A stretch of 64,000 nt of DNA from a candidate division FCPU426 bacterium (GCA_963830915.1 CAWHOE010000042.1:15186-79185), one strand, 5' to 3'; positions 4,242 through 51,052 are shown, counted from the first letter of the stretch. Translations and numbers: made by a program. Notes: generated by a model from the sequence alone, not told the origin.

Positions 4242-4249
4242 GAGGCAGT

Positions 4250-13226: not shown

Positions 13227-13402
13227 TAAGACCCGTTATCGTTTTTGGTTCCCAGAACCCCATAAGTTTTTTCGGGAGATCATCAAAGGAAAAGAAAAAG
13301 TGAGGTGGGGGTGTTACTTCCTATGCCCCTAGGGAAAGTTGCTTTTGAATCTATCCTCAATCCTGGTAAAATGCCAAACAGCAAGGGACATTAGGAGGCA
13401 GT

Positions 13403-14654: not shown

Positions 14655-14684
14655 AATTTCTCCAATTTAAAATATATTATTGAA

Positions 14685-14920
14685 AATTTGGTTGTGCTTG
14701 GACGTAGTCCAAGTACACCATTTATCTTCAATTCTGTGTGGTTGTACCCAGACGACCTGCCTGCCGGAACTTTAGTGAAGGCAGGAGTCTGGGTGCACCA
14801 ATTACATTTGGTTGTGCTTGGACGTAGTCCAAGTACACCAATTTTCGTCTTTGATGAGTGGTTGTACTCAGACGACCCGCCTGGCGTAACTTTAGTGAAG
14901 GCAAGAGTCCAAGCGCGCCA
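14685..14920 (+). repeat. Two tandem copies of a 120-bp repeat, each with a GC-rich hairpin (CTTGGA-cgtag-TCCAAG) and a long nested stem-loop (ACCCAGAC-GA-CCTGCC-[14 nt]-GGCAGG-A-GTCTGGGT) ending GCACCA
   Basis: Period 120 nt (ggttgtgcttgg at 14691 and 14811), about 88% identity between units. Confidence 0.7.
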
Positions 14921-14993: not shown

Positions 14994-15617
14994 ATGCCGC
15001 AAACAACGCCCAAACCAAAAACGTATGAGAAAGCCATCCGGGTCTTTCGAGACCGCGGAGGACTACTTTCGTCCACTGAAGCCCTGCGGGAGGGTATCCA
15101 TCCCAGGGACCTTTATGCCATGCGGGACGGTAAACTGCTGAATCAGCTAAGCCGGGGTCTTTACCGGCTTTCCGATATGCCGTCCCTGGAAAACCCAGAC
15201 ATCGTGACGGTGGCCAGACGGGTGCCGGAAGGTGTCCTTTGTCTTATTTCAGCGCTTGCCATTCATGAACTGACCACCCAAATACCCCATGAGATTTATG
15301 TGGCCCTTGAGATGGGTGCCAGGATTCCACGACTGGAGAATCCACCCATTAGGGTATTCCACTTTTCGGGCAAAGCCTTTACGGAGGGGATCGAGCAACG
15401 AAAGGTAGATGGCATAACCTACAGGGTTTATTCCCGAGAGAAAACCCTGGCGGATTGTTTCAAATACCGGAATGTCGTTGGTATGGATACGGCCCTGGAA
15501 GCGCTCCGCAACTATTGGAGGAGTAAGTGGAAGAAAACGGATGAACTCACGAAATTCTCTAAGATCTGCCGTGTGGAGAGGGTGATGGCACCCTACCTGG
15601 AGGCTATCCAAGAATGA
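14994..15617 (+). CDS. abiEi: AbiEi-family antitoxin / transcriptional regulator (type IV TA, abortive infection)
   Basis: N-terminal wHTH (LLSSTEALREGIHPRDLYAMRDGKL) typical of AbiEi; 4-nt overlap with downstream AbiEii. Confidence 0.7.
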   Translation: MPQTTPKPKTYEKAIRVFRDRGGLLSSTEALREGIHPRDLYAMRDGKLLNQLSRGLYRLSDMPSLENPDIVTVARRVPEGVLCLISALAIHELTTQIPHEIYVALEMGARIPRLENPPIRVFHFSGKAFTEGIEQRKVDGITYRVYSREKTLADCFKYRNVVGMDTALEALRNYWRSKWKKTDELTKFSKICRVERVMAPYLEAIQE

Positions 15618-16552
15618 ACAAGCCCATCGTCAATATGGCGGCCTCGGTGCATCAACGGCTTCTCAATAAGGCCCAAAAGTCGAAGCGCCCATTTAATGAG
15701 CTTCTCCACTATTACGCGATGGAGAGGTTCCTGTACCGCCTATCGCGGTCCAAGTACTCGGAAAAATTCATCCTGAAGGGGGCCCTTCTTTTTACCGCCT
15801 GGGAAGTCGCCGAATCCAGGCCGACCATGGACATCGACCTATTGGGGAAAATGAAGAATGAACCGGGGAGCATAGCCCAAGTCGTGAAGGAGATTTGTGG
15901 TCATGATGATGATCATAATGATGGTCTTCGGTTTGACCCTGCAACGGTGAAAGCGACCCGGATCGTTGAAGGGGCCGATTACCATGGAGTAAGGGTCATG
16001 TTCCTAGCCAAGCTAGCTAACGCCAGGATACCCATGCAGATCGACATAGGTTTCGGCGATCCTCATTCAGGGGGTTCGGTTTCTTTAGTGTACCCAACCC
16101 TTTTGGATCATCCAGCACCCCACCTTAAGGGTTATCGGCCAGAAAACGCCATCGCGGAGAAATTCGAGGCTATGTGCAAGCGTGGAATGACCAATACCCG
16201 GATGAAAGATTTTTTCGACGTTTGGCTTTTGGCGCGCCGGTTCGACTTTGACGGGAGCGCCCTTTCAAAAGCGATCATGGAAACCTTTGCGAGTCGCCAT
16301 GTAGAAGTACCTATGGAGCCAACGGCGTTCGGATCAGGCTTTTCCAGGGATAAGGTCAAAAACGTCCAATGGAAAGCTTTCTTGAAAAAGAGTCGGGCGC
16401 CGCATGCCCCGATGAATCTTGCCGTCGCGGTTAAGGTAATAAAAGGATTTCTAGGTCCCATCGCAAAGACTTTGGCCGAGAAAAAGAATTTCGTCGGGAA
16501 GTGGAAGGCACCAGGGCCGTGGAAAATTCCGAGCGGGCGTCAAAAACACTAA
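15614..16552 (+). CDS. abiEii: AbiEii/AbiGii-family nucleotidyltransferase toxin (DUF1814)
   Basis: N-terminus SVHQRLLNKAQKSKRPFNELLHYYAMERFLYRL and central GFGDPH...Y(R)PE block as in DUF1814 NTases. Confidence 0.75.
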   Translation: MNKPIVNMAASVHQRLLNKAQKSKRPFNELLHYYAMERFLYRLSRSKYSEKFILKGALLFTAWEVAESRPTMDIDLLGKMKNEPGSIAQVVKEICGHDDDHNDGLRFDPATVKATRIVEGADYHGVRVMFLAKLANARIPMQIDIGFGDPHSGGSVSLVYPTLLDHPAPHLKGYRPENAIAEKFEAMCKRGMTNTRMKDFFDVWLLARRFDFDGSALSKAIMETFASRHVEVPMEPTAFGSGFSRDKVKNVQWKAFLKKSRAPHAPMNLAVAVKVIKGFLGPIAKTLAEKKNFVGKWKAPGPWKIPSGRQKH

Positions 16553-19814: not shown

Positions 19815-19828
19815 GCAAGAAACGAGCC
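19815..19828 (-). promoter_or_regulatory. sigma-54 -24/-12 promoter (minus strand GGCTCGTTTCTTGC) for 18553-19776
   Basis: GG-N10-GC spacing, followed by TTTAAC as in the other copies; ATG about 40 nt downstream. Confidence 0.5.
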
Positions 19829-20185: not shown

Positions 20186-21814
20186 ATGCGCGTCGAAGAC
20201 CTCGACCTAAAAGAACTTTTGGAATATGACCCATCTGGAGGCAAGATCCGTTTTGCCGGACAAAGAGCCCTGATATTCGACGCCGTTTCCCAGGGGCTCC
20301 TTCGCAAAGAGTTGGTCGCCACCTATGGCGAAAGGATCGCCCGGGGCATCCTCAGCCGCTACGGCTATATCCACGGCCGTCGCCTGGCCGAGACCCTGAA
20401 GAACAAGTTCAACTGGGATACGGAAGAAGACTGGCAAAAGGCCGGAGCCCGGGTCTTTGCCCTGCAGGGATTATTCATGCAGGAGCCCGGCATGCCCATC
20501 GCCTTCGGCATGGAAGGCGGGACCTGGCGTGTTTCCTATGAGGCCGAACAGCACCTGCTCCATATGGGCCGTTCGGACGCCCCTGTCTGCTGGAACTTGT
20601 GCGGGCTCATCAGCGGCTACTTGAGCTACGTCGCCGAGAAGGAAATGTACGCGCTGGAGGACAAGTGCGTGGGCAAGGGCGATACGGCCTGCCACGTGAT
20701 GATCAAGACCGAGGAGGAGTGGGGCGAGATCGCGGGCGGGGAATTGGCGGTTTTCAAACGCATGGGCATCGATGACGCCTTGAAGGACGTCACCAGCTCG
20801 CTGAAGCGCACGGAAAGCGAGTTGCGGGAAAAGACCAGGAAGTTGACCCTCATCGCCAAGATCGAGGAGGACCCGGCGGAACTCATGGCGCGCAGCCCGG
20901 GGATGCGCAAATTGATGGAACTGGCCAAGACCATCGCCGCCATCGATTCCACGGTCCTGATCACGGGCGAGAGCGGCACCGGCAAGGAAAGGGTGGCGCG
21001 GTTCGTCCACGACCATTCGGCCCACGCGGACGGCCCCTTCATCGCGGTCAATTGCGGGGCCATCACCGAGACATTGCTGGAGAGCGAGCTCTTCGGCCAC
21101 GCCCGCGGGGCCTTCACCGGCGCGACCACGGACCGGGCCGGCCTTTTCGAGGCGGCCAACGGCGGGACCCTGTTGCTCGACGAGGTGGGCGAGATATCCC
21201 TGCCCATGCAGGTGAAGCTCCTCCGGGCCATCCAGGAGCGGGAAGTGCGAAGGGTCGGCGAGAACAAGAACCGGCCGGTCAGGGTGCGCATCGTCAGCGC
21301 CACCAACAAGGACCTGTCGATCGAGGTGGCAGAAAAAAGATTCCGGGACGACCTCTATTACCGCCTGAACGTGGTGGAACTGGCCGTGCCGCCCCTGCGC
21401 CAAAGGCGGGAGGACATCCTTCCCCTCGCGCGCCTGCTCCTGGCCGAATCGGCCCTTCAAATGAAGCGCCCCGTGGACGGGATGACGCCCGCGGCGGCGG
21501 ACAAATTGCTGGAATACTCCTGGCCCGGCAACGTGCGGGAACTGGCGAACGCCATGGAAAGGGCGGTGGCGGTTGCCAAGACCAACCGCGTGGACGTGGA
21601 GGACCTGCCCCCCCAGGTGCTTTTGATGACGCCGATGGCTTCCAACCAGGGGGATCCCCGGGCCATGAAGGATGTGGAGAAGGATTGCATCCTGAACGCC
21701 CTGGAAAAAACCGACGGCAACCGCCGGAAAGCGGCGGAATTGATGGGACTGGGCGTGGCGACCCTATACCGAAAACTCCGGGCCTACAAGTTGTTGGATA
21801 AGGTGCAGGAATGA
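20186..21814 (+). CDS. sigma-54-dependent transcriptional activator (bEBP) with XylR-N/V4R-type sensor domain and C-terminal Fis-type HTH
   Basis: GESGTGKE Walker A, GAFTGA sigma-54 contact loop, ESELFGH, C-terminal HTH (ALEKTDGNRRKAAELMGL). Confidence 0.85.
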   Translation: MRVEDLDLKELLEYDPSGGKIRFAGQRALIFDAVSQGLLRKELVATYGERIARGILSRYGYIHGRRLAETLKNKFNWDTEEDWQKAGARVFALQGLFMQEPGMPIAFGMEGGTWRVSYEAEQHLLHMGRSDAPVCWNLCGLISGYLSYVAEKEMYALEDKCVGKGDTACHVMIKTEEEWGEIAGGELAVFKRMGIDDALKDVTSSLKRTESELREKTRKLTLIAKIEEDPAELMARSPGMRKLMELAKTIAAIDSTVLITGESGTGKERVARFVHDHSAHADGPFIAVNCGAITETLLESELFGHARGAFTGATTDRAGLFEAANGGTLLLDEVGEISLPMQVKLLRAIQEREVRRVGENKNRPVRVRIVSATNKDLSIEVAEKRFRDDLYYRLNVVELAVPPLRQRREDILPLARLLLAESALQMKRPVDGMTPAAADKLLEYSWPGNVRELANAMERAVAVAKTNRVDVEDLPPQVLLMTPMASNQGDPRAMKDVEKDCILNALEKTDGNRRKAAELMGLGVATLYRKLRAYKLLDKVQE

Positions 21815-24020: not shown

Positions 24021-24034
24021 GCAAGAAACAAGCC
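24021..24034 (-). promoter_or_regulatory. sigma-54 promoter (minus strand GGCTTGTTTCTTGC) for STAS gene
   Basis: GG-N10-GC with TTGC; about 50 nt upstream of ATG 23971. Confidence 0.5.
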
Positions 24035-24095
24035 GGTTCTTATTGGAAATTAGCAACGAATCAGGCTGGTCTTTGATCGGATTTCATCAATGAAA

Positions 24096-24130
24096 ATCAA
24101 AACGAGAATTGAGGGCGATCAATTTGATCG
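24096..24130. promoter_or_regulatory. Candidate UAS: ATCAAAACGAG-N10-GATCAATTTGATCG shared by divergent STAS and OMP promoters
   Basis: Same paired site recurs at about 10 other promoters in the window. Confidence 0.5.
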
Positions 24131-24205
24131 TTCGCGGTCTATAGAAGAACGCGCCGCGGAACGGAAACCGATTTTTATCCTGACCAGCGGAGGGTTTCTG
24201 GGGGG

Positions 24206-24219
24206 GTATGGAACTTGCT
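24206..24219 (+). promoter_or_regulatory. Degenerate sigma-54-like promoter (GGGTATGGAACTTGC, then TTAACACC) for OMP gene
   Basis: Homologous to the CTTGCTTTAACACC core, 1-nt deletion; GG-N10-GC retained. Confidence 0.35.
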
Positions 24220-27727: not shown

Positions 27728-27904
27728 TTATCTCGTTCCGCTTCGTATGTATTTTTCAGCTTCGAGCCAATCGGTCAATTCATCTCCCGCCTGTTCGATC
27801 CTTCCCCGATTCAAATAACTGTAATAAGCGGCTTCCTCGATCTTCTGGGTGTTATCCACGCTCTTTGAGAGCGGGATGGTTTTCTCTGTTTTCTTATTGA
27901 ACAT
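27728..27904 (-). CDS. DUF2934 small protein (paralog 1)
   Basis: IEEAAYYSYLNRGRIEQAGDELTDWLEAEKYI matches DUF2934 core (AY..WE.RG.P.G.D..DW..AE); start chosen at MFNKKTEK downstream of the sigma-54 site. Confidence 0.65.
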   Translation of the reverse strand: MFNKKTEKTIPLSKSVDNTQKIEEAAYYSYLNRGRIEQAGDELTDWLEAEKYIRSGTR

Positions 27905-27972: not shown

Positions 27973-27986
27973 GCAAGAAACGAGCC
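27973..27986 (-). promoter_or_regulatory. sigma-54 promoter (GGCTCGTTTCTTGC) for DUF2934 gene
   Basis: GG-N10-GC; about 57 nt upstream of ATG 27904. Confidence 0.5.
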
Positions 27987-28036
27987 GTGTTTTGATGGGC
28001 GAAAGTACCGAATTTTCACCTTTCATTATTTTTGGC

Positions 28037-28070
28037 GATCAAAACGAGAGGCAAATGTCTTTATTGATCG
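28037..28070. promoter_or_regulatory. Candidate UAS GATCAAAACGAG-N12-TTATTGATCG shared by divergent promoters
   Basis: Motif family as at 24096, 31343, 39674, 50944. Confidence 0.45.
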
Positions 28071-28110
28071 CATCGATGAAATAAATAGTCATGACAGCGG
28101 GAAAACCCGC

Positions 28111-28124
28111 GGCACGTTCCTTGC
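28111..28124 (+). promoter_or_regulatory. sigma-54 promoter GGCACGTTCCTTGC (+TTTAACACCCTCC) for DUF3494 gene
   Basis: Perfect match to TGGCACG-N4-TTGC consensus; 27-nt block identical to 39803-39830. Confidence 0.6.
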
Positions 28125-28188
28125 TTTAACACCCTCCATGGTTTTCGTTCTCAAAACAGAAATCCAAATAATACGCAAGGAAGTTAAA

Positions 28189-28986
28189 GTGAAAAAGTTC
28201 ATAGCTCTTTCGATCATGCTGGCACTGTTCCCGGCGGTCTTTATGACGGGATGTACCGGCTCAACGCCGACAGGTTCAAGCAACAATGGGGGCCCGACCG
28301 CAACACCAACGGCCACACCCATTCCGGGCATTTATTTAACGCCCCAAACCACCCCTCAAGCGCAGGTCTCCCTATTGACCGCGGCTAATTACGTGATCCT
28401 GTCCTACACGGGGATCACCAATAGCGGGCCCAGCACCACCTGCGGGGGTTATGGGGTCTATCCGGATGGATTGACCTCGGTAACGGGTTCTCCCGCGATC
28501 GTGGAGAATTGCGGCGGGGCCATTGATGTGGGCGATGCCACCGCGGATCAGGCCAAAAAAGACCTGGGAACGGCATATACCAACATCGGGAACCGGGTAG
28601 GCGGCGCGCCCATCCCGTCAGGCGCCGATATCGGGGGAACGACCCTGTATCCCGGTCTGTACATTGACAACGGGGACCTGAACATATCCTCCTCGGATTT
28701 GACCCTGGACGCCCAAGGCGACTCGACCGCCATCTTTATCTTCAAGGTTTCGGGCGTACTGACCGTCGCGACCAGCCGAAAGGTCACCCTGGCCAATAAC
28801 GCGAACGCCGCCAATGTCTATTGGTGGTTGACCAAGAACTGTACCTTGAACGCTTCCGTCCAAATGAAGGGGACCATCATGGCTTATACCTCCGTCACCT
28901 TCGGCAACAGTACCGTGCTGACCGGGCGGGCCCTGGCCGAAAACGGGGATGTAACTTTGCTGACCAATACCATTACCCATCCTTAA
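28189..28986 (+). CDS. DUF3494 / ice-binding-like family lipoprotein (beta-solenoid)
   Basis: Lipobox AVFMTGC; ILSYTGITNSG, IDVGDATADQAKKDLGTAY, GTTLYPGLY, NVYWWL, GTIMAYTSVTF, GRALAENGDVTL match the ice-binding-like fold family; GTG start (ATG at 28138 lies before the promoter-proximal segment). Confidence 0.65.
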   Translation: MKKFIALSIMLALFPAVFMTGCTGSTPTGSSNNGGPTATPTATPIPGIYLTPQTTPQAQVSLLTAANYVILSYTGITNSGPSTTCGGYGVYPDGLTSVTGSPAIVENCGGAIDVGDATADQAKKDLGTAYTNIGNRVGGAPIPSGADIGGTTLYPGLYIDNGDLNISSSDLTLDAQGDSTAIFIFKVSGVLTVATSRKVTLANNANAANVYWWLTKNCTLNASVQMKGTIMAYTSVTFGNSTVLTGRALAENGDVTLLTNTITHP

Positions 28987-30871: not shown

Positions 30872-31051
30872 TTATGGTTCTGTTAGGCTATCCCACACCT
30901 CTTTTTCAGCTTCGGCCCAGTCACACATCTTGTCGCCCGCCTGGGCGTAACGCTCCCGGTTCAAATAACAGTAATAGGCGGCTTGTTCGATCTGTTGGGT
31001 GATCTCAGTCTCGGTCAGCGCGACTTTTTTTTGTTTTGTGTCATCGCTCAT
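30872..31051 (-). CDS. DUF2934 small protein (paralog 2)
   Basis: IEQAAYYCYLNRERYAQAGDKMCDWAEAEKEV; start at MSDDTKQKK. Confidence 0.6.
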   Translation of the reverse strand: MSDDTKQKKVALTETEITQQIEQAAYYCYLNRERYAQAGDKMCDWAEAEKEVWDSLTEP

Positions 31052-31267: not shown

Positions 31268-31281
31268 GCAAGAAACAAGCC
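31268..31281 (-). promoter_or_regulatory. sigma-54 promoter (GGCTTGTTTCTTGCA) upstream of DUF2934 paralog 2
   Basis: GG-N10-GC with TTGCA; long (about 200 nt) leader containing the MITE-like element. Confidence 0.4.
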
Positions 31282-31342
31282 GAGTCGTTTCGATCCGATC
31301 TTTTGTAATTTGACCCTTTTTCGATGGTTCCATCCCAAGAAA

Positions 31343-31376
31343 ATCAAAACGAGACCGAAACCGATCATTTTGATCG
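31343..31376. promoter_or_regulatory. Candidate UAS ATCAAAACGAG-N9-GATCATTTTGATCG
   Basis: About 95-125 nt upstream of the sigma-54 core at 31468. Confidence 0.5.
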
Positions 31377-31467
31377 GGAAGTCAGCGTCACATACAGGGA
31401 CGCGGGTTCCGCCCCGCAAATATCGACCTTTCTCCTTTGTTCGGTGGGGTGGAGCCGCGCCAGCGGG

Positions 31468-31481
31468 GGCACGTTCCTTGC
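31468..31481 (+). promoter_or_regulatory. sigma-54 promoter GGCACGTTCCTTGC for SPFH/PRC-barrel/H+-ATPase operon
   Basis: Perfect -24/-12 consensus; ATG 31536. Confidence 0.6.
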
Positions 31482-31535
31482 TTTAACACTAACCTCAAGT
31501 CATGGGATCAAATATCTTTCACGGAGGCTTTTGAA

Positions 31536-32465
31536 ATGAGAAACGGAAGTTCTTTTCCGATGTTGGTGTTCTGCGTCATTGTGGCACTCGGCGGCGGTTT
31601 GGCTTATGTAATCTATCTCGGCAATCCATCCAATTTTCCTGTCAGCGTTTTCATCGGGGCACTTACTTTTGCCGCCGCCCTGATAAGCTCGCTCGCGATC
31701 AAGGTCGCGGACCAATGGGAAAGGGTCGTGATCCTGCGTCTGGGCAAGTATCGGTCCCTGGAAGGCCCCGGCCTGTTCTTCATCATCCCCATCATCGACG
31801 ATATCGCCTATTGGATCGACACCCGGGTGATCACCTCCGCCTTCAAGGCCGAGAAGACCCTGACCAAGGACACGGTGCCGGTGGACGTGGACGCGGTGCT
31901 GTTCTGGAAAGTGGTGGATCCCAAGAAAGCGGCCCTGGACGTGGCCGATTACCAGAGCGCCATCCAATGGGCCTCCCAGACGGCCCTGAGGGACGTGATC
32001 GGCAAGACCATGCTCTCCGACATGCTGGAAGGCCGGGAAAAGATCAGCAGCGAGCTCCAAAAGATCATCGATGTGCGCACCGAGCCCTGGGGCATCAACG
32101 TCATCTCGGTGGAGGTGAAGGACGTGCTGATCCCCGCGGCCTTGGAGGACGCCATGTCCATGCAGGCCCAGGCGGAAAGGGAGCGTCAGGCCCGCGTGAT
32201 CCTGGGTGATTCGGAACGCCAGGTGGCGGAGAAGTTCGGGGAAGCGGCCAAGACCTATATCAACAATCCGGTCGCCCTTCATTTGAGGGCCATGAACATG
32301 CTTTACGAGGGGTTGAAGGCCAATTCCACGATCGTCATCGTGCCAAGTTCGGTGGTGGAAACCATGCAGTTGGGAGGGATGGCAGGACTGACGGCCTTGA
32401 CCATGGGTATCGGGCAGGAACAGGCGAACAAAGCGAAGGTTATTGGACCAGGAACCCAAACGTGA
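31536..32465 (+). CDS. SPFH/band-7 (stomatin-like) membrane protein
   Basis: N-terminal TM + SPFH core (QWERVVILRLGKY...TKDTVPVDVDAVLFWKVVDP...) and coiled-coil tail. Confidence 0.8.
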   Translation: MRNGSSFPMLVFCVIVALGGGLAYVIYLGNPSNFPVSVFIGALTFAAALISSLAIKVADQWERVVILRLGKYRSLEGPGLFFIIPIIDDIAYWIDTRVITSAFKAEKTLTKDTVPVDVDAVLFWKVVDPKKAALDVADYQSAIQWASQTALRDVIGKTMLSDMLEGREKISSELQKIIDVRTEPWGINVISVEVKDVLIPAALEDAMSMQAQAERERQARVILGDSERQVAEKFGEAAKTYINNPVALHLRAMNMLYEGLKANSTIVIVPSSVVETMQLGGMAGLTALTMGIGQEQANKAKVIGPGTQT

Positions 32466-32508
32466 AGTCGGCGGTGAAAAGATACTCAAAGCTCGAAAGG
32501 AAATCAAA

Positions 32509-33279
32509 ATGTTGAATAAAGCAAAAAACATGCAGGGTTACAAATTGCACGGCAAGGATGGGGAATTGGGAACGATCCAGGAGTTCTTCTTCGACGACCA
32601 CCACTGGACGATCCGCTATCTGGTGGTTGACACGGGAACCTGGCTCGCTGGCCGACAGGTATTGATCTCTCCCTACGCGGTGACCTCGGTCCAACATGAG
32701 GGAAGATATGTCAGTGTCGAGTTGACCAAAAGGCAGATCGAGAACAGCCCGTCGTTGGAAAGCGACAAGCCGGTCTCGAGACAATTCGAGGAAACCTATC
32801 ACGACTATTACAAATTTCCCGTCTATTGGGGAGGCGCCTTCGCCTGGGGCCCCTATTCCTACATCAACCGCAACCGAGAAAACAGGGAAGAACCTGTAGC
32901 CGCTCATAAGGAGTGGGACCGCAACTTGCGCAGTACGGAAGACGTCACGAACCACCACATCCAGGCCCTGGACGGCGAGGTCGGATATGTCGAGGATTTC
33001 ATCATTGACGACGAGAACTGGGCGATCCGCTACCTGGTCGTCAGTACCAATAATTGGCTGCCGGGAAAACACGTCCTCTTGTCGACCCGCTGGATCCAGA
33101 GCGTGAGCTGGAACGAACAGAAGGTATTCGTCGGCCTGACCAGGGAGGCCATCAAGAACTCGCCTGAGTTCTCGGCCCATTCCCTCCTGACCCGGGAATA
33201 CGAGGTGGGACTGCACCGCCATTACGACCGCCATGGCTATTGGCTTGATGACCTGGAAGTTGTCAAAACCACCCATTGA
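32509..33279 (+). CDS. Tandem PRC-barrel domain protein (paralog A)
   Basis: Two repeats of LxGxxV.D..G..xG.V.DF..D...W.IRYLVV.T..WL.G..VL.S motif. Confidence 0.65.
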   Translation: MLNKAKNMQGYKLHGKDGELGTIQEFFFDDHHWTIRYLVVDTGTWLAGRQVLISPYAVTSVQHEGRYVSVELTKRQIENSPSLESDKPVSRQFEETYHDYYKFPVYWGGAFAWGPYSYINRNRENREEPVAAHKEWDRNLRSTEDVTNHHIQALDGEVGYVEDFIIDDENWAIRYLVVSTNNWLPGKHVLLSTRWIQSVSWNEQKVFVGLTREAIKNSPEFSAHSLLTREYEVGLHRHYDRHGYWLDDLEVVKTTH

Positions 33280-33328
33280 AATGGTCGTTCACCCGCCGTA
33301 CCGCAGTTGAAGTGGAAAGGAACTCTTT

Positions 33329-33649
33329 ATGATGGAAAAAGTCAGGCCGCTGAAAAACTACAAATTATTCGACCGCGCTGGCGTGTTGGGAAAGATCAAG
33401 GAATTCTATTTCGACGATAACCACTGGACCATCCGTTATTGGGCCGCGGGAATGGGAAAACTGCTTTCGGGCAGGGAAGTAACCATCTCACCCTACGAGC
33501 TGGCCGGGGTGAACAAGGGAAACCACCGCATCACGGTCGATCTGGGTAAAAAGCGGATGGAAGAGCGTCTGCCCGCGCGGGATGGACTGGCCGGTCTGCG
33601 CCTGCATTACAAACTCCAGGCTTGCTGGGTCGATGAGATGACCCGTTAA
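33329..33649 (+). CDS. Single PRC-barrel domain protein (paralog B)
   Basis: KLFDRAGVLGKIKEFYFDDNHWTIRYWAAGMGKLLSGREVTISPYEL. Confidence 0.55.
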   Translation: MMEKVRPLKNYKLFDRAGVLGKIKEFYFDDNHWTIRYWAAGMGKLLSGREVTISPYELAGVNKGNHRITVDLGKKRMEERLPARDGLAGLRLHYKLQACWVDEMTR

Positions 33650-33684
33650 AAACGGCCAAAACAAAGTCAAGGAAGGAATGAACC

Positions 33685-34461
33685 ATGCTGAACAAAACCA
33701 AAATTCTGAAGGGTTACAAATTGCACGGCCTGGACGGGGAAATAGGCGAGGTCAATGAGTTCTATTTCGATGACCAGTTTTGGACGGTCCGTTATCTGGT
33801 CGCCAACACGGTCCGGTGGCTTCCGGGACGGCCGGTGTTGATCTCGCCATACGCGCTGGGCGCGGTGGATAAGGAAAACCGGAGCATCACGGTCAAATTG
33901 ACGAAAAAACAGATCGAGGAAAGTCCCTCGTTGGAAAGCGATAAGCCCGTCTCGAGGCAGTTCGAGGAGGCTTACCACGAGCATTACGGTTGGCCTGCCT
34001 ATTGGAGCGGCGTATACGCTTGGGGACCTAATCCATTCATTTTGCCGGGTCGTGATAAACCTAAAAAAAACCTGTTCGGCGGTAAAAGGCCGGACCACCA
34101 TTTACGCAGTACGGATAAGGTGAGCGGATATGTCATCCAAGCGTCGGACGGTGAGATCGGCCATGTCTCTGATTTCATCATCGACGAAGAGACCTGGGCG
34201 ATCCGTTACCTGGTCATCGATACGAGGAATTGGCTGCCCGGAAAGTATGTCCTGGTCTCGACCAAATGGATCGAGCGGGTGAGCTGGGTTGAATCCAAGG
34301 TGTACGTCAATCTTTCCAGGGAGATGATCAAGTCTTCGCCCGAATACACGCCCGAATCCCTATTGACCCGGGATTACGAGATCGGCCTGCACCGTCATTA
34401 CGACCGCCACGGATATTGGGTGGAAGAGGTGGGAGCCGGAAAAAGCGCCCACATTGGGTAG
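33685..34461 (+). CDS. Tandem PRC-barrel domain protein (paralog C)
   Basis: About 65% identical to paralog A incl. SPSLESDKPVSRQFEE and LLTR(D/E)YE(I/V)GLHRHYDRHGYW blocks. Confidence 0.65.
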   Translation: MLNKTKILKGYKLHGLDGEIGEVNEFYFDDQFWTVRYLVANTVRWLPGRPVLISPYALGAVDKENRSITVKLTKKQIEESPSLESDKPVSRQFEEAYHEHYGWPAYWSGVYAWGPNPFILPGRDKPKKNLFGGKRPDHHLRSTDKVSGYVIQASDGEIGHVSDFIIDEETWAIRYLVIDTRNWLPGKYVLVSTKWIERVSWVESKVYVNLSREMIKSSPEYTPESLLTRDYEIGLHRHYDRHGYWVEEVGAGKSAHIG

Positions 34462-34566
34462 ATGGTCGGCGGGGCAGCCCTGCCGTTGGAAGAGGGAGGG
34501 TCCTATGGCAACGATGAGCCGAAAGCCCCGTGAATGGTTTAAAGAAAAAATGATGGGAGATAACCG

Positions 34567-37107
34567 ATGACAGAACAAGAAGGCAAAAAGAAACCTGAGC
34601 CTAAGGCCGGGTTGCAACTGATCCCTCAGGATGACCTGCAAAAACTGCCCCTGGCTGAAGTGGAGAAAAAGTTGGGATCGACGCCCGACGGCCTCACTCA
34701 GGCTGAGGCGCAAAAACGGCTGGCCCAATACGGGCCCAATGAGATCGAGGAAAAAAAGACCAACCTTTTCCTGAAATTCCTAGGCTATTTTTGGGGGCCC
34801 ATCCCCTGGATGATCGAGGCGGCCGTGATCCTTTCGGCGGCGGCGCGCCATTGGCCCGATTTTTTCATCATCCTTCTTCTGCTTTTCGCCAACGCCGTCG
34901 TCGGGTTCTGGGAAGAACACCAGGCGGGCAACGCTATCGAGGCCCTGAAGGCCAAGCTGGCGGTCAAGGCCAGGGTATTGCGGGATGGGAAGTGGACCAC
35001 TCCGCCGGCCAAGGAATTGGTGCCGGGCGATGTCATCCGCCTGCGCCTGGGCGACATCGTTCCGGCGGACGCGCGCCTGCTTTCGGGCGACGAAGTGGAG
35101 GTGGACCAGTCCGCCTTGACAGGGGAATCCCTGCCCGTCGTGAAAAAGTCCGGAGAAGCGGTGTTTTCGGGTTCGATCCTCCGGCAGGGGGAAATTGGCG
35201 CCATGGCCTATGCCACGGGCGGGAACACTTTTTTCGGAAAGACGGCCAAACTGGTGCAGGACGCCCATACCGTCAGCCATTTCCAAAAAGCGGTCTTGAA
35301 GATCGGCGATTACCTGATATTCCTCGCGGTGGCGTTGGTGGCGTTGATCATCATGGTCGCCATATTCCGCGGCGACCCGATCCTCACCACGCTCCAGTTC
35401 GCCCTGGTGCTGACGGTGGCCGCCATCCCCGTGGCGATGCCGACGGTCTTGTCGGTGACCATGGCGGTGGGGGCGCGCCTGCTCGCGAAAAAACAGGCGA
35501 TCGTCAGCAAACTGGTGGCCATCGAGGAATTGGCGGGAGTGGACGTGCTTTGCGCGGACAAGACCGGCACCCTGACCCAGAACAAGCTGACCCTGGGCGA
35601 TCCCTTCTGCCTGGATAAGATCACCCCGGAGCAGGTGATCCTCAACGCCGCGCTGGCCTCGCGTGCGGAAAATAACGACACCATTGACCTGGCCGTCCTG
35701 GGGGGGCTGAAGGACCCAGCGGTCCTGAAGGAATACCAGGTGGCTCATTTCACGCCCTTCGACGCCGTGCATAAGCGCACCGAGGCCACCGTCAAGGATA
35801 AGGATGGAAAGGAATTCAAGGTCACCAAGGGCGCGCCCCAGGTCATCTTGGCCCTGTCGGCGAATGCCTCGCAGGAAAAGCCCGCCGTTGAGAAGGCCGT
35901 CGATGAGTTCGCGGCCCGTGGTTTTCGTTCCTTGGGCGTGGCCCGGGCCGAGGGGGGAGGTCCTTGGCAGCTCCTGGGCGTCCTGCCTTTGTTCGACCCT
36001 CCCCGGGAAGACGCAAAGGAAACCATCGCGACCGCCCTGAAGATGGGCGTGAAGGTCAAGATGGTCACGGGCGACGCGCTGGCCATCGCCAAGGAAACCG
36101 CCAAAAAACTGGACATGGGCGTGAATATCCTGGACGCGGCCAGTCTAGGCGACTCCAAAAAAGAAGAATCGTCGGAGACGGCCGAATCCATCGAGAAGGC
36201 GGATGGGTTCGCCCAAGTGTTCCCCGAGCACAAGTTCCATATCGTGGATGTCCTTCAAAAACGCGGGCATCTGGTCGGGATGACCGGCGACGGGGTGAAC
36301 GACGCCCCGGCGTTGAAGAAGGCCGATTGCGGCATCGCCGTTTCGGGCGCCACGGACGCGGCCCGCGCCGCGGCCTCCATCGTATTGATGACCCCCGGTT
36401 TGTCGGTGATCATCGACGCGGTCAAGGAAAGCCGGAAAATTTTCCAACGGATGAACAGCTACGCCATCTACCGGATCTCCGAGACCCTGCGTGTGCTCTT
36501 ATTCATGACGGCGTCGATCCTGGCGTTCAACTTTTACCCCGTGACCGCCGTGATGATCGTGATGCTGGCCTTGCTCAATGACGGCGCCATCCTGTCTATC
36601 GCCTACGACAACGTAAAATACAAGGATCAGCCCGAGGCCTGGAACATGCGGATGGTCCTGGGAATATCCACGGTCCTTGGCGTCATTGGGGTTGTCTCCG
36701 CTTTCGGTTTGTTTTACCTCGGGGAAAGGGTTTTCCACCTTGACCGTTCCCATATCCAGACGCTGATGTATTTGAAGCTGTCCGTGGCGGGCCATCTGAC
36801 GATATTCCTCACGCGCACGCGCGGCGCTTTCTGGACCATACGTCCCGCGAAGATATTATGGATCGCCGTGCTTGGCACCCAGATCATCGCGACCTTGATC
36901 GCGGTCTATGGTTTCCTGATGACGCCGCTGGGTTGGGGCTGGGCGGGTTTCGTGTGGGGGTACGCGCTGGTTTGGTTCCTCATCAATGACCGGTTGAAAC
37001 TGCTGGCCTACCGGATATTCGATCCCTCGAAAACCGATGTTGGACCAAGGGAAGAGAATCGCAGAGTGGAAAAACTGGGCGCCGAAAGAAGCGCCAGCGT
37101 TGGTTAG
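34567..37107 (+). CDS. P-type ATPase, type IIIA plasma-membrane H+-ATPase-like
   Basis: CADKTGTLTQNKLT phosphorylation site, MVTGD, GMTGDGVNDAPALKKAD, TGESLPV; overall similarity to PMA1/AHA-type pumps. Confidence 0.9.
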   Translation: MTEQEGKKKPEPKAGLQLIPQDDLQKLPLAEVEKKLGSTPDGLTQAEAQKRLAQYGPNEIEEKKTNLFLKFLGYFWGPIPWMIEAAVILSAAARHWPDFFIILLLLFANAVVGFWEEHQAGNAIEALKAKLAVKARVLRDGKWTTPPAKELVPGDVIRLRLGDIVPADARLLSGDEVEVDQSALTGESLPVVKKSGEAVFSGSILRQGEIGAMAYATGGNTFFGKTAKLVQDAHTVSHFQKAVLKIGDYLIFLAVALVALIIMVAIFRGDPILTTLQFALVLTVAAIPVAMPTVLSVTMAVGARLLAKKQAIVSKLVAIEELAGVDVLCADKTGTLTQNKLTLGDPFCLDKITPEQVILNAALASRAENNDTIDLAVLGGLKDPAVLKEYQVAHFTPFDAVHKRTEATVKDKDGKEFKVTKGAPQVILALSANASQEKPAVEKAVDEFAARGFRSLGVARAEGGGPWQLLGVLPLFDPPREDAKETIATALKMGVKVKMVTGDALAIAKETAKKLDMGVNILDAASLGDSKKEESSETAESIEKADGFAQVFPEHKFHIVDVLQKRGHLVGMTGDGVNDAPALKKADCGIAVSGATDAARAAASIVLMTPGLSVIIDAVKESRKIFQRMNSYAIYRISETLRVLLFMTASILAFNFYPVTAVMIVMLALLNDGAILSIAYDNVKYKDQPEAWNMRMVLGISTVLGVIGVVSAFGLFYLGERVFHLDRSHIQTLMYLKLSVAGHLTIFLTRTRGAFWTIRPAKILWIAVLGTQIIATLIAVYGFLMTPLGWGWAGFVWGYALVWFLINDRLKLLAYRIFDPSKTDVGPREENRRVEKLGAERSASVG

Positions 37108-37180: not shown

Positions 37181-37552
37181 ATGAAGGGTTTAAGTTTTTT
37201 GATGGTCTCGATTTGGTTGTTAGGAACGGCAGGGTTGGCTTCGGCGCAAACGACGAACGCGCAGGGGCAATTCATCGAAGGCGCGCAAATGTCGAAGGCC
37301 CAGATATGGGGCCGGGTCCATGACCAGATCGCCAGGGTTAACGCGGCCTCCAAAGTGGGCAAGCTGCTCATAGGTGAAGCCGCCTCGCTCCTGGCTCAAT
37401 TGCAGTCGATCAGGGACACGATCAAGGCTGATTACGTCGAGAACGGGAAAAAAGAACTGAGCGACGACCAGAAGATCGCGTTGAATGACATGTTGGATGG
37501 GACCGCCAGAAGTATATCGGACAAGGGCGGGTATCAGTACGCTTCTCCCTGA
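37181..37552 (+). CDS. Secreted hypothetical protein
   Basis: Signal peptide MKGLSFLMVSIWLLGTAGLASA. Confidence 0.45.
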   Translation: MKGLSFLMVSIWLLGTAGLASAQTTNAQGQFIEGAQMSKAQIWGRVHDQIARVNAASKVGKLLIGEAASLLAQLQSIRDTIKADYVENGKKELSDDQKIALNDMLDGTARSISDKGGYQYASP

Positions 37553-37671: not shown

Positions 37672-37760
37672 TTGCCACAGACGCATGGGATTCATGAGAT
37701 TTCAAAACTGTCATGATTTTAAACTGTTTCTTTGCCCATCCTGTGTGTCCCATGCATCTG
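37672..37760 (+). repeat. Repeat family C (GCCACAGAYSCATGGGAWWCATGWGATTT ... TGTTTCTTTGCCCMTCYTRTGYRTCCCATGCAT) at a convergent gene junction
   Basis: Second copy at 43960-44046, also between convergent genes. Confidence 0.5.
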
Positions 37761-37864
37761 TGGCTGATTTAGCCGTAGCTGTGCTTTTTGTTTTAAAACA
37801 ATAAAATCTTTTGACTTGATCATCTTTGGCATCGGGGTCACGCCTTTCTTGGACGAAAGCGCAA

Positions 37865-38750: not shown

Positions 38751-38963
38751 CTATTTGGTTCCGACCACCAAGGGAAGGGGATGGGTCCTGGGACGCCAGG
38801 ATAGGTCCAGCGTGAACACATAGGTCATGATGGCCGTCAGCATCAGGACCATGACGACCCAAAAACGCCAGTCCCGGTGGGCCCGGCGCCAATAAGGGGC
38901 GCGGAATTCAGCGGCCTCCAGTCCCGGATTCAGCGGATGGATCTCATGTTTGTGTTTGGTCAA
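38751..38963 (-). CDS. Small membrane protein, hypothetical
   Basis: 70-aa ORF with one TM (WRFWVVMVLMLTAIMTYVF). Confidence 0.35.
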   Translation of the reverse strand: MTKHKHEIHPLNPGLEAAEFRAPYWRRAHRDWRFWVVMVLMLTAIMTYVFTLDLSWRPRTHPLPLVVGTK

Positions 38964-39615: not shown

Positions 39616-39629
39616 GCAAGAAGCGGGCC
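39616..39629 (-). promoter_or_regulatory. sigma-54-like promoter (GGCCCGCTTCTTGC) for PLDc_N gene
   Basis: GG-N10-GC; about 45 nt upstream of ATG 39571. Confidence 0.4.
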
Positions 39630-39673
39630 GTGCCGCGAATGGAGCTCTATCCGCCGATCGGTCGTTCTGGAGG

Positions 39674-39708
39674 GATCAAAACAAGAGAAGGGAAGATCAT
39701 TTTGATCG
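39674..39708. promoter_or_regulatory. Candidate UAS GATCAAAACAAG-N9-GATCATTTTGATCG
   Basis: Shared by divergent PLDc_N and LysM promoters. Confidence 0.5.
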
Positions 39709-39802
39709 GGATCATCACCCCGAAACGAGGAAGGGAATGGAAGGGCGGCCTTTTATCGCCATTCCCCTTCATTTTGGGGTTCGGCCCGCCCAGGGACATA
39801 AG

Positions 39803-39816
39803 GGCACGTTCCTTGC
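39803..39816 (+). promoter_or_regulatory. sigma-54 promoter GGCACGTTCCTTGC (+TTTAACACCCTCCATGG) for LysM gene
   Basis: Identical 27-nt block to 28111-28137. Confidence 0.6.
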
Positions 39817-48331: not shown

Positions 48332-48345
48332 GGCACGATAGTTGC
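48332..48345 (+). promoter_or_regulatory. sigma-54 promoter GGCACGATAGTTGC (+TCTTAAC) for 48411 gene
   Basis: TGGCACG-N4-TTGC consensus. Confidence 0.55.
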
Positions 48346-50635: not shown

Positions 50636-50649
50636 GCAAGAAATGAGCC
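50636..50649 (-). promoter_or_regulatory. sigma-54 promoter (GGCTCATTTCTTGC+TTTAAT) for ADH
   Basis: GG-N10-GC; about 68 nt upstream of ATG 50556. Confidence 0.5.
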
Positions 50650-50943
50650 GACCAAGACCCGGCTTTGTCATGGATCTACATGTCTATCAGCAAAGCGCAC
50701 CTATATATGGACTTTAGTCAATTTGTTAGAAGCACAATCTCCCCCTCTGAAAGAGGGGGAACAAGGGGGAGTTAGTTTTTATAGGTTATTTCGGTAACGA
50801 CTAATACCCCCCTACCCCCCTTTTTCACCCCCATTTCTTCATTTAAAAATCACAAAAATGAGAATGGGGACGTCCCCATGCCCCGTGATATTTTCCCAAA
50901 AGAGGCATGGGGGAATGGGGGTGTCTGTACCTGGTCCTGAAAA

Positions 50944-50977
50944 ATCAAAATGAGGGTCGGAACGATCAATTTGATCG
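50944..50977. promoter_or_regulatory. Candidate UAS ATCAAAATGAG-N9-GATCAATTTGATCG shared by divergent ADH and rhodanese promoters
   Basis: Motif family. Confidence 0.5.
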
Positions 50978-51038
50978 TAATCGATCCCTAAGTTGAGGAA
51001 CGGGGAAGGGTTAAGGGTGTAAACGCTTGGATTCCAAC

Positions 51039-51052
51039 GGTACAGAACTTGC
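51039..51052 (+). promoter_or_regulatory. sigma-54-like promoter GGTACAGAACTTGC (+TTTAACCC) for rhodanese gene
   Basis: GG-N10-GC, TTGC. Confidence 0.45.

Follow-up and report, generated by a model that had tools for sequence, protein, structure and literature searches.

A sigma-54 operon encoding a stomatin-type protein, PRC-barrel paralogs, and a predicted P3A proton pump, as a reduced form of a larger bacterial island

Genes of the operon

The window analyzed here is a 64,000-nucleotide stretch of bacterial DNA that carries, at positions 31468 to 37107, five plus-strand genes 3' of a sigma-54 promoter. In order, these genes encode a stomatin-type SPFH protein, three PRC-barrel proteins (PRC2a, PRC1, and PRC2b), and a P3A (plasma-membrane-type) H+-ATPase. 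An operon of this composition had been proposed in an earlier, sequence-only reading, and every part of it was found. The genes are separated by 43, 49, 35, and 105 nt, a ribosome-binding site is present at each of the five starts, and the cluster appears unsplit, as that reading required: neither a strong internal terminator nor an internal sigma-54 promoter was found. On the plus strand, no terminator-like site occurs 5' of 35909, and those within the ATPase gene are weak (stems of 5 to 7 bp with 3 to 4 G-C pairs). The operon probably also includes a sixth gene (37181-37552, plus strand), which has a strong AAGGAGG ribosome-binding site and encodes a 123-aa secreted protein of unknown family with a signal peptide and no Pfam or NCBIfam match. 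No terminator was found between the ATPase gene and this gene, and a homolog (29% identity) lies 3' of the pump in L034, one of the related loci to which we refer by number. The first convincing terminator-like hairpin, a 9-bp stem followed by the T-run CTGTGCTTTT, is at 37758-37778 (plus strand). Against the closest relative, L087, dN/dS is 0.13 to 0.20 for all four comparable genes, PRC1 included, and all three PRC genes are under purifying selection. The PADLOC anti-phage defense models gave zero matches for seven proteins of the locus.

The first gene (31536-32465, plus strand) encodes a 309-aa protein with a Pfam Band_7 match (E 5e-38). Its PDB matches are led by stomatins (PH stomatin, 2e-43; human stomatin, 7e-41), followed by QmcA (8e-31) and HflK (4e-11), and two N-terminal hydrophobic segments can be read from the sequence; a domain closest to stomatins together with an N-terminal hydrophobic anchor places the protein in the stomatin type. 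In these matches it is like the proteins of known prokaryotic stomatin operons (Pyrococcus PH1511/PH1510 and Escherichia coli QmcA-YbbJ). However, those operons pair the stomatin with an NfeD/STOPP partner, whereas the partners downstream here are PRC-barrel proteins, and no NfeD family member, adjacent or otherwise, was found among the operon or neighbor proteins scanned. In L034, the downstream partner of the SPFH gene is an M50 protease with a CBS-like C-terminal region. Judging by the stomatin and HflK/C-FtsH cage families, the window protein could plausibly act as a scaffold that encloses or organizes an enzyme of the membrane.

The three PRC-barrel proteins are indeed paralogous (44 to 61% identity), and two of them are double-domain proteins. 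PRC2a (32509-33279, 256 aa) and PRC2b (33685-34461, 258 aa) each give two PRC-barrel matches, and PRC1 (33329-33649, 106 aa) gives one; all three genes are on the plus strand, and the PF05239 scores for PRC2a, PRC1, and PRC2b are 44.5, 22.9, and 47.8 bits, respectively, against a cut-off of 21.2. Identity to the L087 ortholog is 98.4% for PRC2a (dN/dS 0.13) and 86% for PRC1 (dN/dS 0.19); a search for PRC1 orthologs beyond L087 found none. The tandem proteins represent a distinct and highly conserved family of about 256 aa, here called PRC2, with a mean column identity of 81% over 52 sequences.

What do these proteins resemble? The AF2 model of PRC2b contains two barrels (pLDDT 78, pTM 0.79), and its Foldseek matches include CdpB1/CdpB2 (E 2e-9) and 3htr; the tandem barrel layout of archaeal CdpB1/2 resembles PRC2b overall. 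Each half of PRC2b also superposes on the cytoplasmic domain of PuhA, the reaction-center H subunit (rmsd of about 1.9 A over 95 residues). Identity with PuhA was considered and rejected: TIGR01150 gives 53.5 and 36.9 bits against a cut-off of 200, the PRC proteins have no membrane helix, and puf and bch genes are absent nearby. More broadly, the window PRC2 proteins differ from PuhA, CdpB1/2, RimM, and YlmC in having neither a membrane helix nor photosynthesis or cell-division genes in their vicinity, and the PRC2 family differs from known PRC-barrel proteins in its link to phosphoketolase and ion pumps.

The fifth gene (34567-37107, plus strand) encodes an 846-aa ATPase that matches TIGR01647 (IIIA H+) at 1080.1 bits, against a trusted cut-off of 615.5. 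The next-best model, IIIB Mg, reaches 358.3 bits and falls under its own cut-off of 610.75. Similarity scores are 738 bits to AHA2 and 656 bits to PMA1, its best solved relatives, versus 284 bits to MgtA, so that the protein does not group with Mg2+ or K+ pumps. The catalytic motifs are complete (TGES at 185, DKTGT at 331, and GDGVNDAPAL at 574), and the proton-path residues N109 (FANAV), R642 (ETLRV), and D672 (LLNDG) align with N106, R655, and D684 of AHA2. The likeness to Arabidopsis AHA2 and to yeast and Neurospora PMA1 thus extends to a full-length match, all P-type motifs, and the M2 Asn, M5 Arg, and M6 Asp. Based on its sequence, the ATPase is a IIIA H+ pump, as first proposed, and not a Mg2+ or K+ pump; proton transport is predicted. 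In contrast to AHA2 and PMA1, which carry a C-terminal autoinhibitory R domain, the window pump has none and ends about 35 residues past its last membrane helix; prokaryotic IIIA members generally lack the R domain. It differs further from these relatives in its genetic setting, a bacterial operon under sigma-54 control that also holds SPFH and PRC-barrel genes.

A related question is whether pumps of this kind carry some other C-terminal module. The domain DUF2934 is fused to the P3A pump as a tail in 75 of the 119 closest pump homologs (63%), and it is fused also to a CopA-like pump and to N-ATPase subunit b. In the window, DUF2934 modules are free-standing genes within the same control regions. 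One of them, a gene call at 30872-31051 on the minus strand, is divergent from the operon control region and encodes a 59-aa DUF2934-like protein that aligns with DUF2934 modules fused to the relatives' pumps (BLASTP E 5e-7 and 2e-4); the Pfam match on the longer open reading frame is weak (E 0.0076, below the cut-off).

The control region

The operon lies behind a sigma-54 (-24/-12) promoter at 31468-31489 (plus strand), made up of the core GGCACGTTCCTTGC (31468-31481) and a conserved TTTAACAC. Aligned with TGGCAC-N5-TTGCW, GGGCACGTTCCTTGCT agrees at 15 of 16 positions, the first base being G and not T, and the -24 GG and -12 GC elements are present with the spacing of that consensus. A loose sigma-54 consensus has four matches in the window versus 1.5 expected, which alone is not significant; in contrast, the 22-mer GGCACGTTCCTTGCTTTAACAC occurs in three identical copies (28111, 31468, and 39803) versus 0 expected, which is. 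L034 and L089 have orthologous promoters about 66 nt 5' of their SPFH genes, and L061 has one 5' of PRC2.

A divergent sigma-54-type promoter, GGCTTGTTTCTTGC, lies on the minus strand at 31268-31281, and its block GCAAGAAACA(A/G)GCC is unchanged across four aligned control regions. Between the two promoters, about 95 to 125 nt 5' of the operon promoter, lies a candidate upstream activator sequence (UAS), the inverted repeat ATCAAAACGA-N10-GATCATTTTGATC (31343-31375); allowing at most one mismatch, GATCATTTTGATC has seven matches versus 0.2 expected. This layout of minus-strand promoter, inverted-repeat UAS, and plus-strand promoter recurs in about five bidirectional control regions in the window. 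The candidate UAS is conserved in L034, L089, and L061, in whose upstream regions the same three blocks are the sole conserved islands, the remainder having diverged.

The candidate activator of this regulon is a sigma-54 enhancer-binding protein encoded 10 kb from the operon (20186-21814, plus strand), with XylR_N, V4R, AAA+, and HTH_8 domains. Its Pfam matches include Sigma54_activat (1e-69), XylR_N (6e-26), V4R, and HTH_8, its GAFTGA motif is at 21107, and it is similar over its full length to the V4R regulator MobR, with a score below the MobR cut-off. We assign this protein to the UAS by proximity, and it would bind there. No rpoN was seen among the window open reading frames scanned. In total, the two promoters and the UAS, which are kept in relatives, and a GAFTGA activator in the same window bear out the view of a sigma-54 operon. 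The same promoter also stands in front of stress-type genes of the window that are unrelated to the operon, among them Ice_binding-like, old yellow enzyme, LysM, cupin, and rhodanese genes. Because the promoter motif is confined to a few related lineages, sigma-54 control does not characterize the wider island described below.

A mosaic form of a larger island

The five-gene operon is a reduced, mosaic form of a larger, horizontally transferred island found in at least eight named bacterial groups, in which SPFH, PRC, and pump genes are joined to genes for glycogen phosphorylase, phosphoketolase, aldolase, acetate kinase, and PPK2. Co-occurrence was counted, as raw numbers, over 79 genome loci holding a PRC2 homolog, and the pump was scored in the 43 with enough flank. 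A P3A pump (55 to 92% identity) lies on the same strand 3 to 9 kb 3' of PRC2 in 12 of these 43. SPFH co-occurs with PRC2 in only 7 of the 79 loci, and with both PRC2 and the pump in only three. Phosphoketolase is present in 23 PRC2 loci and directly 3' of PRC2 in 15 of 65; it, and not the pump, is the tightest PRC2 partner. Other recurring genes are those for acetate kinase (19 loci), a HAD hydrolase (18), class-I aldolase (16), and glycogen phosphorylase (10). A pump is absent from the 10 kb around PRC2 in most loci, and some of the PRC2 loci sit in unrelated contexts; of four pump-centered loci examined, two lack PRC2; and CopA-like and MgtA-like P-type pumps also travel with PRC2. Thus, the idea that the five genes form a module holds in part: the operon is real, but it is not a self-contained, conserved unit.

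The gene order of the island is highly variable. The syntenic relatives of the window locus are L089 and L034, and in L089, whose flanking genes are the same as those of the window, the order is SPFH-PRC2-STAS-AckA-XFP-STAS-pump-PPK2. Phosphoketolase, acetate kinase, aldolase, and glycogen phosphorylase genes are all absent from the 64-kb window. How, then, did PRC2b and the pump come to be neighbors? In L087, whose SPFH protein is 96.5% identical to that of the window, the order is SPFH, PRC2a, PRC1, PRC2b, PRC2c, FBA, GlgP, and then an N-ATPase operon. In the window, the spacer between PRC2b and the ATPase gene holds a frameshifted relic of a glgP 3' end (34466-34517, plus strand), with 88.7% nucleotide identity to L087 positions 6846-6898, which are the last glgP codons, directly 5' of the N-ATPase operon. 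The window adjacency arose by deletion of PRC2c, FBA, and GlgP. Direct PRC2-pump adjacency, part of the gene order that the sequence-only reading proposed to check in other genomes, is a derived state.

The pump itself has been exchanged. The N-ATPase operon of L087 sits at the position of the window P3A pump and contains, by Pfam, ATP-synt_ab, ATP-synt_DE_N, ATPase_gene1, AtpR, ATP-synt_A, ATP-synt_C, ATP-synt_B, and ATP-synt_ab, that is, subunits beta, epsilon, AtpQ, AtpR, a, c, b, and alpha. This order agrees with the published definition (beta, epsilon, two N-specific genes, a, c, b, and alpha; PMC11738941). N-type ATPases are presumed to be ATP-driven ion pumps (PMC11738941), and their operons have spread laterally (Dibrova et al. 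2010, as summarized in PMC11738941). Unlike the P3A pump, they are multi-subunit rotary enzymes and not P-type, and the window contains none. N-ATPase genes also occur within 10 kb of PRC2 in L012, L015, and L108; L032 has only an AtpQ match.

Proposed function and its alternatives

Based on these observations, we lean toward a model in which a horizontally mobile island serves as an energy-starvation or dormancy unit and the operon is its membrane arm, supporting ATP-driven H+ export when respiration fails. In this model, the XylR_N/V4R activator would respond to a small molecule, bind to the inverted repeat of the UAS some 100 nt 5' of the promoter, and fire both divergent promoters. The P3A pump would then hydrolyze ATP and export H+, thereby maintaining membrane potential and cytoplasmic pH where respiration cannot. 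In fuller islands, glycogen would be the source of the ATP, which would be made by way of phosphoketolase and acetate kinase; in some versions an N-type rotary ATPase, presumably also an ATP-driven ion pump, would take the place of the proton pump. The SPFH protein probably oligomerizes to form a membrane compartment that surrounds or adjoins the pump, with which it and the PRC proteins may be in physical contact. The tandem PRC-barrel proteins most likely act in the cytoplasm as protein-binding adaptors for island enzymes or pumps, or as their regulators. The earlier suggestion of a membrane-energization unit is strengthened by the relatives' glycogen, phosphoketolase, and acetate kinase genes and by the exchange of the pump for an N-type ATPase.

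Could the operon instead be one of convenience, its genes being merely co-regulated within a general stress or dormancy regulon, with SPFH and PRC proteins linked to the pump neither functionally nor physically? The shared promoter of unrelated stress-type genes, the variable island order, and the many PRC2 loci without any pump are consistent with this, but some kind of pump recurs 3' of PRC2 in many phyla, a near-identical SPFH-PRC block has been kept though the pump type was swapped, and the genes are tightly spaced and under purifying selection; we consider it rather unlikely. The acid-stress unit first suggested, in which the pump would expel H+ leaking in at low external pH as an acid-tolerance determinant of peat or wetland bacteria, fits the predicted proton-efflux family of the pump and the many related loci from metagenome-assembled genomes with SPRUCE, fen, or bog in the isolate name, which we take to be acidic peat and mire sites. 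However, PRC2 with a downstream phosphoketolase occurs in Methylotuvimicrobium buryatense, an alkaliphile, PRC2 with a pump occurs in filamentous cyanobacteria, PRC2 is found in psychrophilic Clostridium species, and an N-ATPase can take the place of the pump. Because the island is linked to glycogen catabolism and substrate-level ATP formation, we favor energy supply over pH alone and regard acid stress as an unlikely explanation.

Two further alternatives concern single components. RimM binds ribosomal protein S19 through its PRC-barrel, and with this precedent the PRC-barrel proteins might be ribosome- or RNA-associated hibernation factors that pair translational shutdown with membrane maintenance; a Ribosomal_S30AE hibernation factor gene does lie near one pump locus. 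This seems very improbable given that the closest sequence and fold matches are to the reaction-center H subunit and archaeal CdpB rather than RimM, and that a Pfam search of the PRC proteins found neither a KH domain nor a RimM N-terminal domain. As for the ATPase moving Mg2+, K+, Na+, or Ca2+ instead of H+, the H+ specificity of prokaryotic clade members is taken here from sequence, and CopA-like and MgtA-like pumps accompany PRC2 as well; yet the H+ model far outscores the Mg2+ model, AHA2 and PMA1 are the best matches of solved structure, and the proton-path Asn, Arg, and Asp are conserved, so that we give this possibility hardly any weight.

A broader version of the energy-starvation model is more doubtful. 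We speculate that the tandem PRC-barrel proteins and DUF2934 might form an accessory system that docks on and regulates P3A, CopA-like (P1B-type), and N-type pumps, the island being a traded emergency power unit. If true, previously unrecognized regulators would act on ATP-driven ion pumps of unrelated architecture, and the whole island would draw on stored glycogen to make ATP by way of phosphoketolase and acetate kinase, and would convert that ATP to membrane potential, in bacteria of many phyla that are not respiring. As had been supposed, the components seem not to have been described together: our literature search found no paper linking PRC-barrel proteins with P-type ATPases or with the island. 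The mycobacterial DosR dormancy and hypoxia regulon, in which stress proteins, a P-type ATPase, and carbohydrate and fermentative enzymes are co-regulated for survival without respiration, may offer an analogy in its gene classes and in that mode of survival. In contrast to that regulon, the regulator in the window is sigma-54 with a V4R activator and not DosR, and the island families are PRC2, SPFH, the P3A pump, and phosphoketolase, spread across many phyla.

Composition of the operon

Five ORFs on the plus strand occupy 31536-37107, as the sequence-only reading had claimed: an SPFH gene (31536-32465; Pfam Band_7, E = 5e-38), the tandem PRC-barrel gene PRC2a (32509-33279; two PF05239 stretches, 44.5 bits), the single-barrel paralogue PRC1 (33329-33649; one stretch, 22.9 bits versus a cut-off of 21.2), a second tandem gene, PRC2b (33685-34461; two stretches, 47.8 bits), and an ATPase gene (34567-37107; Pfam Cation_ATPase_N, E1-E2_ATPase, and Hydrolase). 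The count of three PRC-barrel proteins, two of them double-domain, thus stands. The gaps between the genes are 43, 49, 35, and 105 nt, with a ribosome-binding site after each, and the cluster is not split by strong internal signals, in that we found neither a convincing plus-strand terminator nor a sigma-54 promoter inside it. The five genes form an operon. A probable sixth gene (37181-37552, plus strand), with a strong AAGGAGG site, a signal peptide, and no family assignment, follows with no terminator found between it and the ATPase gene, and a terminator-like hairpin with a T-run lies at 37758-37778 (plus strand). A search for leader RNAs and riboswitches across 27.5-40.5 kb (Rfam, permissive E-values) returned only chance-level microRNA and sRNA matches, and PADLOC gave no match for a defense system at the locus.

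The ATPase was claimed to be a type IIIA proton pump, and the profile scores bear this out: it reaches 1080 bits against the plasma-membrane proton-efflux model TIGR01647 of NCBIfam (cut-off, 615.5) versus 358 bits against the Mg2+ model, which is under that model's own cut-off. Among solved relatives, AHA2 (738 bits) and PMA1 (656 bits) match best, far above MgtA (284 bits). The ATPase has the catalytic motifs TGES (185), DKTGT (331), and GDGVNDAPAL (574), and N109, R642, and D672 align with the AHA2 proton-path residues N106, R655, and D684. The protein ends about 35 residues beyond its last membrane helix and therefore, unlike the eukaryotic plasma-membrane H+-ATPases, lacks their regulatory tail. 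The clade is abundant, with at least 8000 homologues, the best 119 of which are 78-91% identical; to our knowledge, bacterial pumps of this type have hardly been studied.

The SPFH protein is of the stomatin type, given its matches to PH stomatin (2e-43), human stomatin (7e-41), and QmcA (8e-31) and a match of only 4e-11 to HflK. Stomatin operons usually include an NfeD partner; in contrast, no NfeD gene was found among the scanned neighbors of this SPFH gene. In the related locus L034, the NfeD protease slot is taken by a gene (6720-7856) that overlaps the SPFH gene by 4 nt and encodes a membrane protease of the M50 (site-2 protease-like) kind; its CBS-like C-terminal region was read by eye, with weak matches in support.

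The PRC2 proteins belong to a strongly conserved family of about 256 residues with at least 8000 homologues, the best 119 of which are 67-76% identical; mean column identity across 52 aligned sequences is 81%. An AlphaFold2 model (pLDDT 78, pTM 0.79) consists of two PRC barrels, each followed by helices, with a disordered linker between them. Foldseek matched this model to the double-barrel archaeal proteins CdpB1/CdpB2 (E = 2e-9), and both halves individually superpose on the reaction-center H subunit's cytoplasmic domain (rmsd of about 1.9 A over 95 residues), with sequence-level support as well. Because the protein has these barrel folds and neither a membrane helix nor an obvious catalytic motif was found in it, a protein-binding module would fit. 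We know of no function for this 256-residue tandem family. PRC1 has a sole detected orthologue, in the related contig L087 (86% identity), and a dN/dS of 0.19, indicating purifying selection; a scan of metagenome contigs for further orthologues gave only N-terminal domains of PRC2 proteins. Its intact frame, its orthologue, and this dN/dS rule out a decaying fragment.

A sigma-54 regulon

The promoter ahead of the operon, GGCACGTTCCTTGC at 31468, had been called a perfect sigma-54 element; it is a real promoter, and it matches the consensus at 15 of 16 positions. Matches to a loose consensus are not significant alone (4 in the window versus 1.5 expected), and the case is carried by context. 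The 22-mer GGCACGTTCCTTGCTTTAACAC occurs in three identical copies (28111, 31468, and 39803) versus 0 expected. About 95-125 nt upstream of the 22-mer promoters lies an inverted repeat, ATCAAAAYGA-N10-GATCAWTTTGATC, whose core has 7 matches versus 0.2 expected; the operon's copy is at 31343-31375, with counterparts near 24096, 28038, 39675, and 50944. About 60 nt further upstream is a minus-strand sigma-54-like element, GGCTYGTTTCTTGC. These blocks build bidirectional cassettes (minus-strand promoter, inverted-repeat UAS, plus-strand promoter) at 24021-24218, 27973-28124, 31268-31481, 39616-39816, and 50636-51052, and single sigma-54 promoter motifs lie at 19815-19828 (minus strand) and 48332-48345 (plus strand). 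The same three blocks are the sole conserved stretches upstream of the SPFH orthologues in L034 and L089 and of PRC2 in L061; such a footprint in otherwise diverged DNA supports a function for the control region. We infer from sequence that the operon is driven by a conserved sigma-54 promoter belonging to a regulon.

Which genes share this control? Those downstream of the cassettes and promoters encode an outer-membrane beta-barrel, SOD, an Ice_binding-like protein, old yellow enzyme, LysM and cupin proteins, an AI-2E transporter, a rhodanese, and small DUF2934 and PLDc_N proteins; they are stress-type genes. A sigma-54 activator (20186-21814; XylR_N, V4R, AAA+ with GAFTGA, HTH_8) adjoins one of the sigma-54 promoters. 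With five cassettes and one V4R activator, the regulon is compact, and its reconstitution in a heterologous host is possible. Almost no distant locus has the strict promoter, the UAS, or the extended -12 pattern; these are common only to the related lineages L034, L089, and L061, perhaps also L002 and L023. Sigma-54 regulation is therefore lineage-specific, and the promoter is not a property of the wider island in which these genes recur. The Ice_binding-like protein (28138-28986; PF11999) is secreted and lies behind the same sigma-54 promoter, and similar proteins adjoin the island in relatives (L089, 524-2397; L090, 13375-15210).

A reduced and mosaic variant of a larger island

Comparison with close relatives shows the operon to be a trimmed, mosaic form of a widespread island, in which glycogen genes are combined with those for phosphoketolase, acetate kinase, and ATP-driven ion pumps. 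L087 matches 32028-34450 at 88.5% nucleotide identity (SPFH and PRC2a proteins, 96.5% and 98.4% identical) and continues beyond the shared block with PRC2c-FBA-GlgP (FBA, aldolase; GlgP, glycogen phosphorylase) and then a complete N-type ATPase operon, whose gene order and function are as described (PMC11738941). In the window, the spacer before the pump gene holds a stretch of about 53 nt (34466-34517) that is 88.7% identical to the 3' end of L087 glgP; it covers roughly the last 17 codons with a 1-nt frameshift, and the similarity ends at the glgP stop codon. This relic and the L087 order indicate that the PRC2b-to-pump junction is secondary, having arisen by deletion of PRC2c, FBA, and GlgP. 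The same upstream block now precedes different ATP-driven pumps in the two contigs. dS between them climbs along the block from 0.06 to 0.37 to 0.68, as expected for a mosaic. The stomatin and PRC-barrel proteins encoded ahead of the P3A (IIIA) pump are under purifying selection.

Other relatives keep more of the island. In L089, the pump is 91% and SPFH 85% identical, the promoters match, and the flanks are those of the window (Ice_binding upstream; BON, PLDc_N, LysM, cupin, AI-2E, and DUF4403 downstream), and the order is SPFH-PRC2-STAS-AckA-XFP-STAS-pump-PPK2 (AckA, acetate kinase; XFP, phosphoketolase). In L034, with a pump 92% identical, the order is SPFH, the M50 protease, HAD, AckA, PRC2, PRC2, XFP, FBA, STAS, and pump.

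A scan for PRC2 homologues, one genome per species, gave 79 loci in Nitrospiraceae, Chloroflexi, Acidobacteriota, Verrucomicrobia, Planctomycetota, Ignavibacteriota, cyanobacteria, Clostridium, Bacteroidales, spirochaetes, Gemmatimonadales, a methanotroph, and others. In raw counts, 12 of the 43 loci whose flank reaches 9 kb or more have a P3A pump (55-92% identical) on the same strand, 3-9 kb downstream of PRC2, and SPFH (73-89% identical) lies upstream in 7 of 79. By our own reasoning, well under 1% of genomes would place a given gene within 10 kb of such a pump. P-type pumps of other kinds (25-38% identical) occur within 10 kb in 11 cases, 9 of them within about 1 kb of PRC2; five read by eye include CopA-like and MgtA-like pumps. 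In L012, L015, and L108, N-ATPase genes are found no more than 10 kb from PRC2; L032 gives an AtpQ match alone. Phosphoketolase is present in 23 of 79 loci (median identity, 84%) and directly downstream of PRC2 in 15 of 65; acetate kinase (19 loci), HAD hydrolase (18), class-I aldolase (16), glycogen phosphorylase (10), and debranching enzyme (9) recur as well, and Zwf, Pgi, RpiB, TIM, PPK2, a SpoIIAA-like protein, and Na+/H+ antiporters also cluster there. This recurrence argues that the operon components belong to a larger island of variable order, and its horizontal transfer would fit the high identities seen between phyla. The five genes alone do not make up a conserved module; gene order varies, and pump and SPFH occur together at only 3 PRC2 loci. 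PRC2 has no strict tie to pumps, as three of its homologues on long contigs have varied neighbors (copper and ABC efflux, Tat, fucose isomerase).

A SpoIIAA-like gene (PF11964) lies directly upstream of the P3A pump in L034 (15399-15761), L088 (3464-3826), L089 (9572-9934), and L091 (9619-9984) and is absent from the window operon; its product may be the pump's most constant partner. Beside phosphoketolase, L016, L027, and L031 encode homologues (45% identity) of a 70-residue membrane protein of the window (38751-38963, minus strand), which may be another small, unannotated island component.

DUF2934 occurs in 75 of the 119 closest pump homologues (from at least 8000), at the C terminus in examples such as L034 (18639-19535) and L088 (3897-7142). 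It is also fused to the N terminus of a CopA-like pump (L009, 7630-9789) and to the C terminus of N-ATPase subunit b in L087 (10650-11795) and L015. Fusions to three unrelated pump types link the domain to ATP-driven pumps, and a shared module for regulation or docking is a possible role. In the window, the pump has no such domain; two small minus-strand DUF2934-like genes (30872-31051 and 27728-27904), each divergent from a sigma-54 cassette, align with the fused modules. No functional study of the domain turned up in open-access papers or bioRxiv preprints.

Proposed function and its alternatives

Soil, sediment, and persistence biology have long asked how non-growing, non-respiring bacteria hold their membrane potential. 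Together with its relatives, the locus suggests a hard-wired answer, mobile between phyla, in which stored glycogen yields substrate-level ATP for a dedicated ATP-driven ion pump. We posit that the V4R activator would sense a signal, upon which the cell would make the pump; the pump would spend ATP to export protons, so that membrane potential and cytoplasmic pH would be preserved when the cell cannot respire. The stomatin could organize a membrane compartment for the pump, and the PRC2 proteins would serve as cytoplasmic adaptors or regulators, perhaps via DUF2934 modules. We read the operon and island as a likely regulon for stress or dormancy that includes an ion pump; a less probable and more novel reading is an accessory system that unrelated ATP-driven pumps share.

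Could the ATPase carry a different cation? This is unlikely given the gap between the proton-efflux and Mg2+ model scores, the plant and yeast pumps as best solved relatives, and the retained proton-path residues. Could the genes be simply co-regulated, without physical coupling of their products? Many PRC2 loci have no pump, which gives this alternative some weight, and some pump loci have no PRC2, a weak point of our model. The energy-supply component of our model meets a difficulty in the window itself, where no island metabolic gene, and thus no ATP-generating gene, was found anywhere in the 64 kb. Acid tolerance is an alternative role for the operon, as is ribosome hibernation for the PRC proteins.

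Each family in the operon is already known. Their combination had been claimed to be undescribed as a module, and in open-access papers and bioRxiv preprints we found no relevant paper linking PRC-barrel, SPFH, phosphoketolase, and P-type or N-type pumps; papers on Methylococcus and Allochromatium name components separately only. Given this coverage, a prior description of the combination or the island is possible. The locus gives the orphan PRC2 family, beside an NfeD-less stomatin, a concrete, testable context.

Mobile-element hallmarks beside the regulon

To the left of the regulon (8-1174, 3786-5508, 13364-14661, and 14994-16552) lie a TraG-type P-loop protein gene, an HTH_17 excisionase-like gene, two tyrosine integrase genes, and an AbiEi/AbiEii pair. 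The integrase genes are a 1.3-kb direct duplication (90.7% identical) that flanks a cassette with an Na+/H+ exchanger, Usp, CrcB, DUF190, a dynamin-like GTPase, and enolase; CrcB and enolase presumably point to fluoride resistance. Homologues of this enolase at about 80% identity bear names from several phyla, and its position between the two integrases makes it an unsafe taxonomic marker. A similar set (integrase, AbiEii, Na_H_Exchanger, and Usp) adjoins a P3A pump in L090. A tandem direct repeat of 104 nt (14686-14789 and 14806-14909; 87.5% identical) lies just 3' of the second copy of the integrase gene and could be an attachment-site-like or regulatory repeat.
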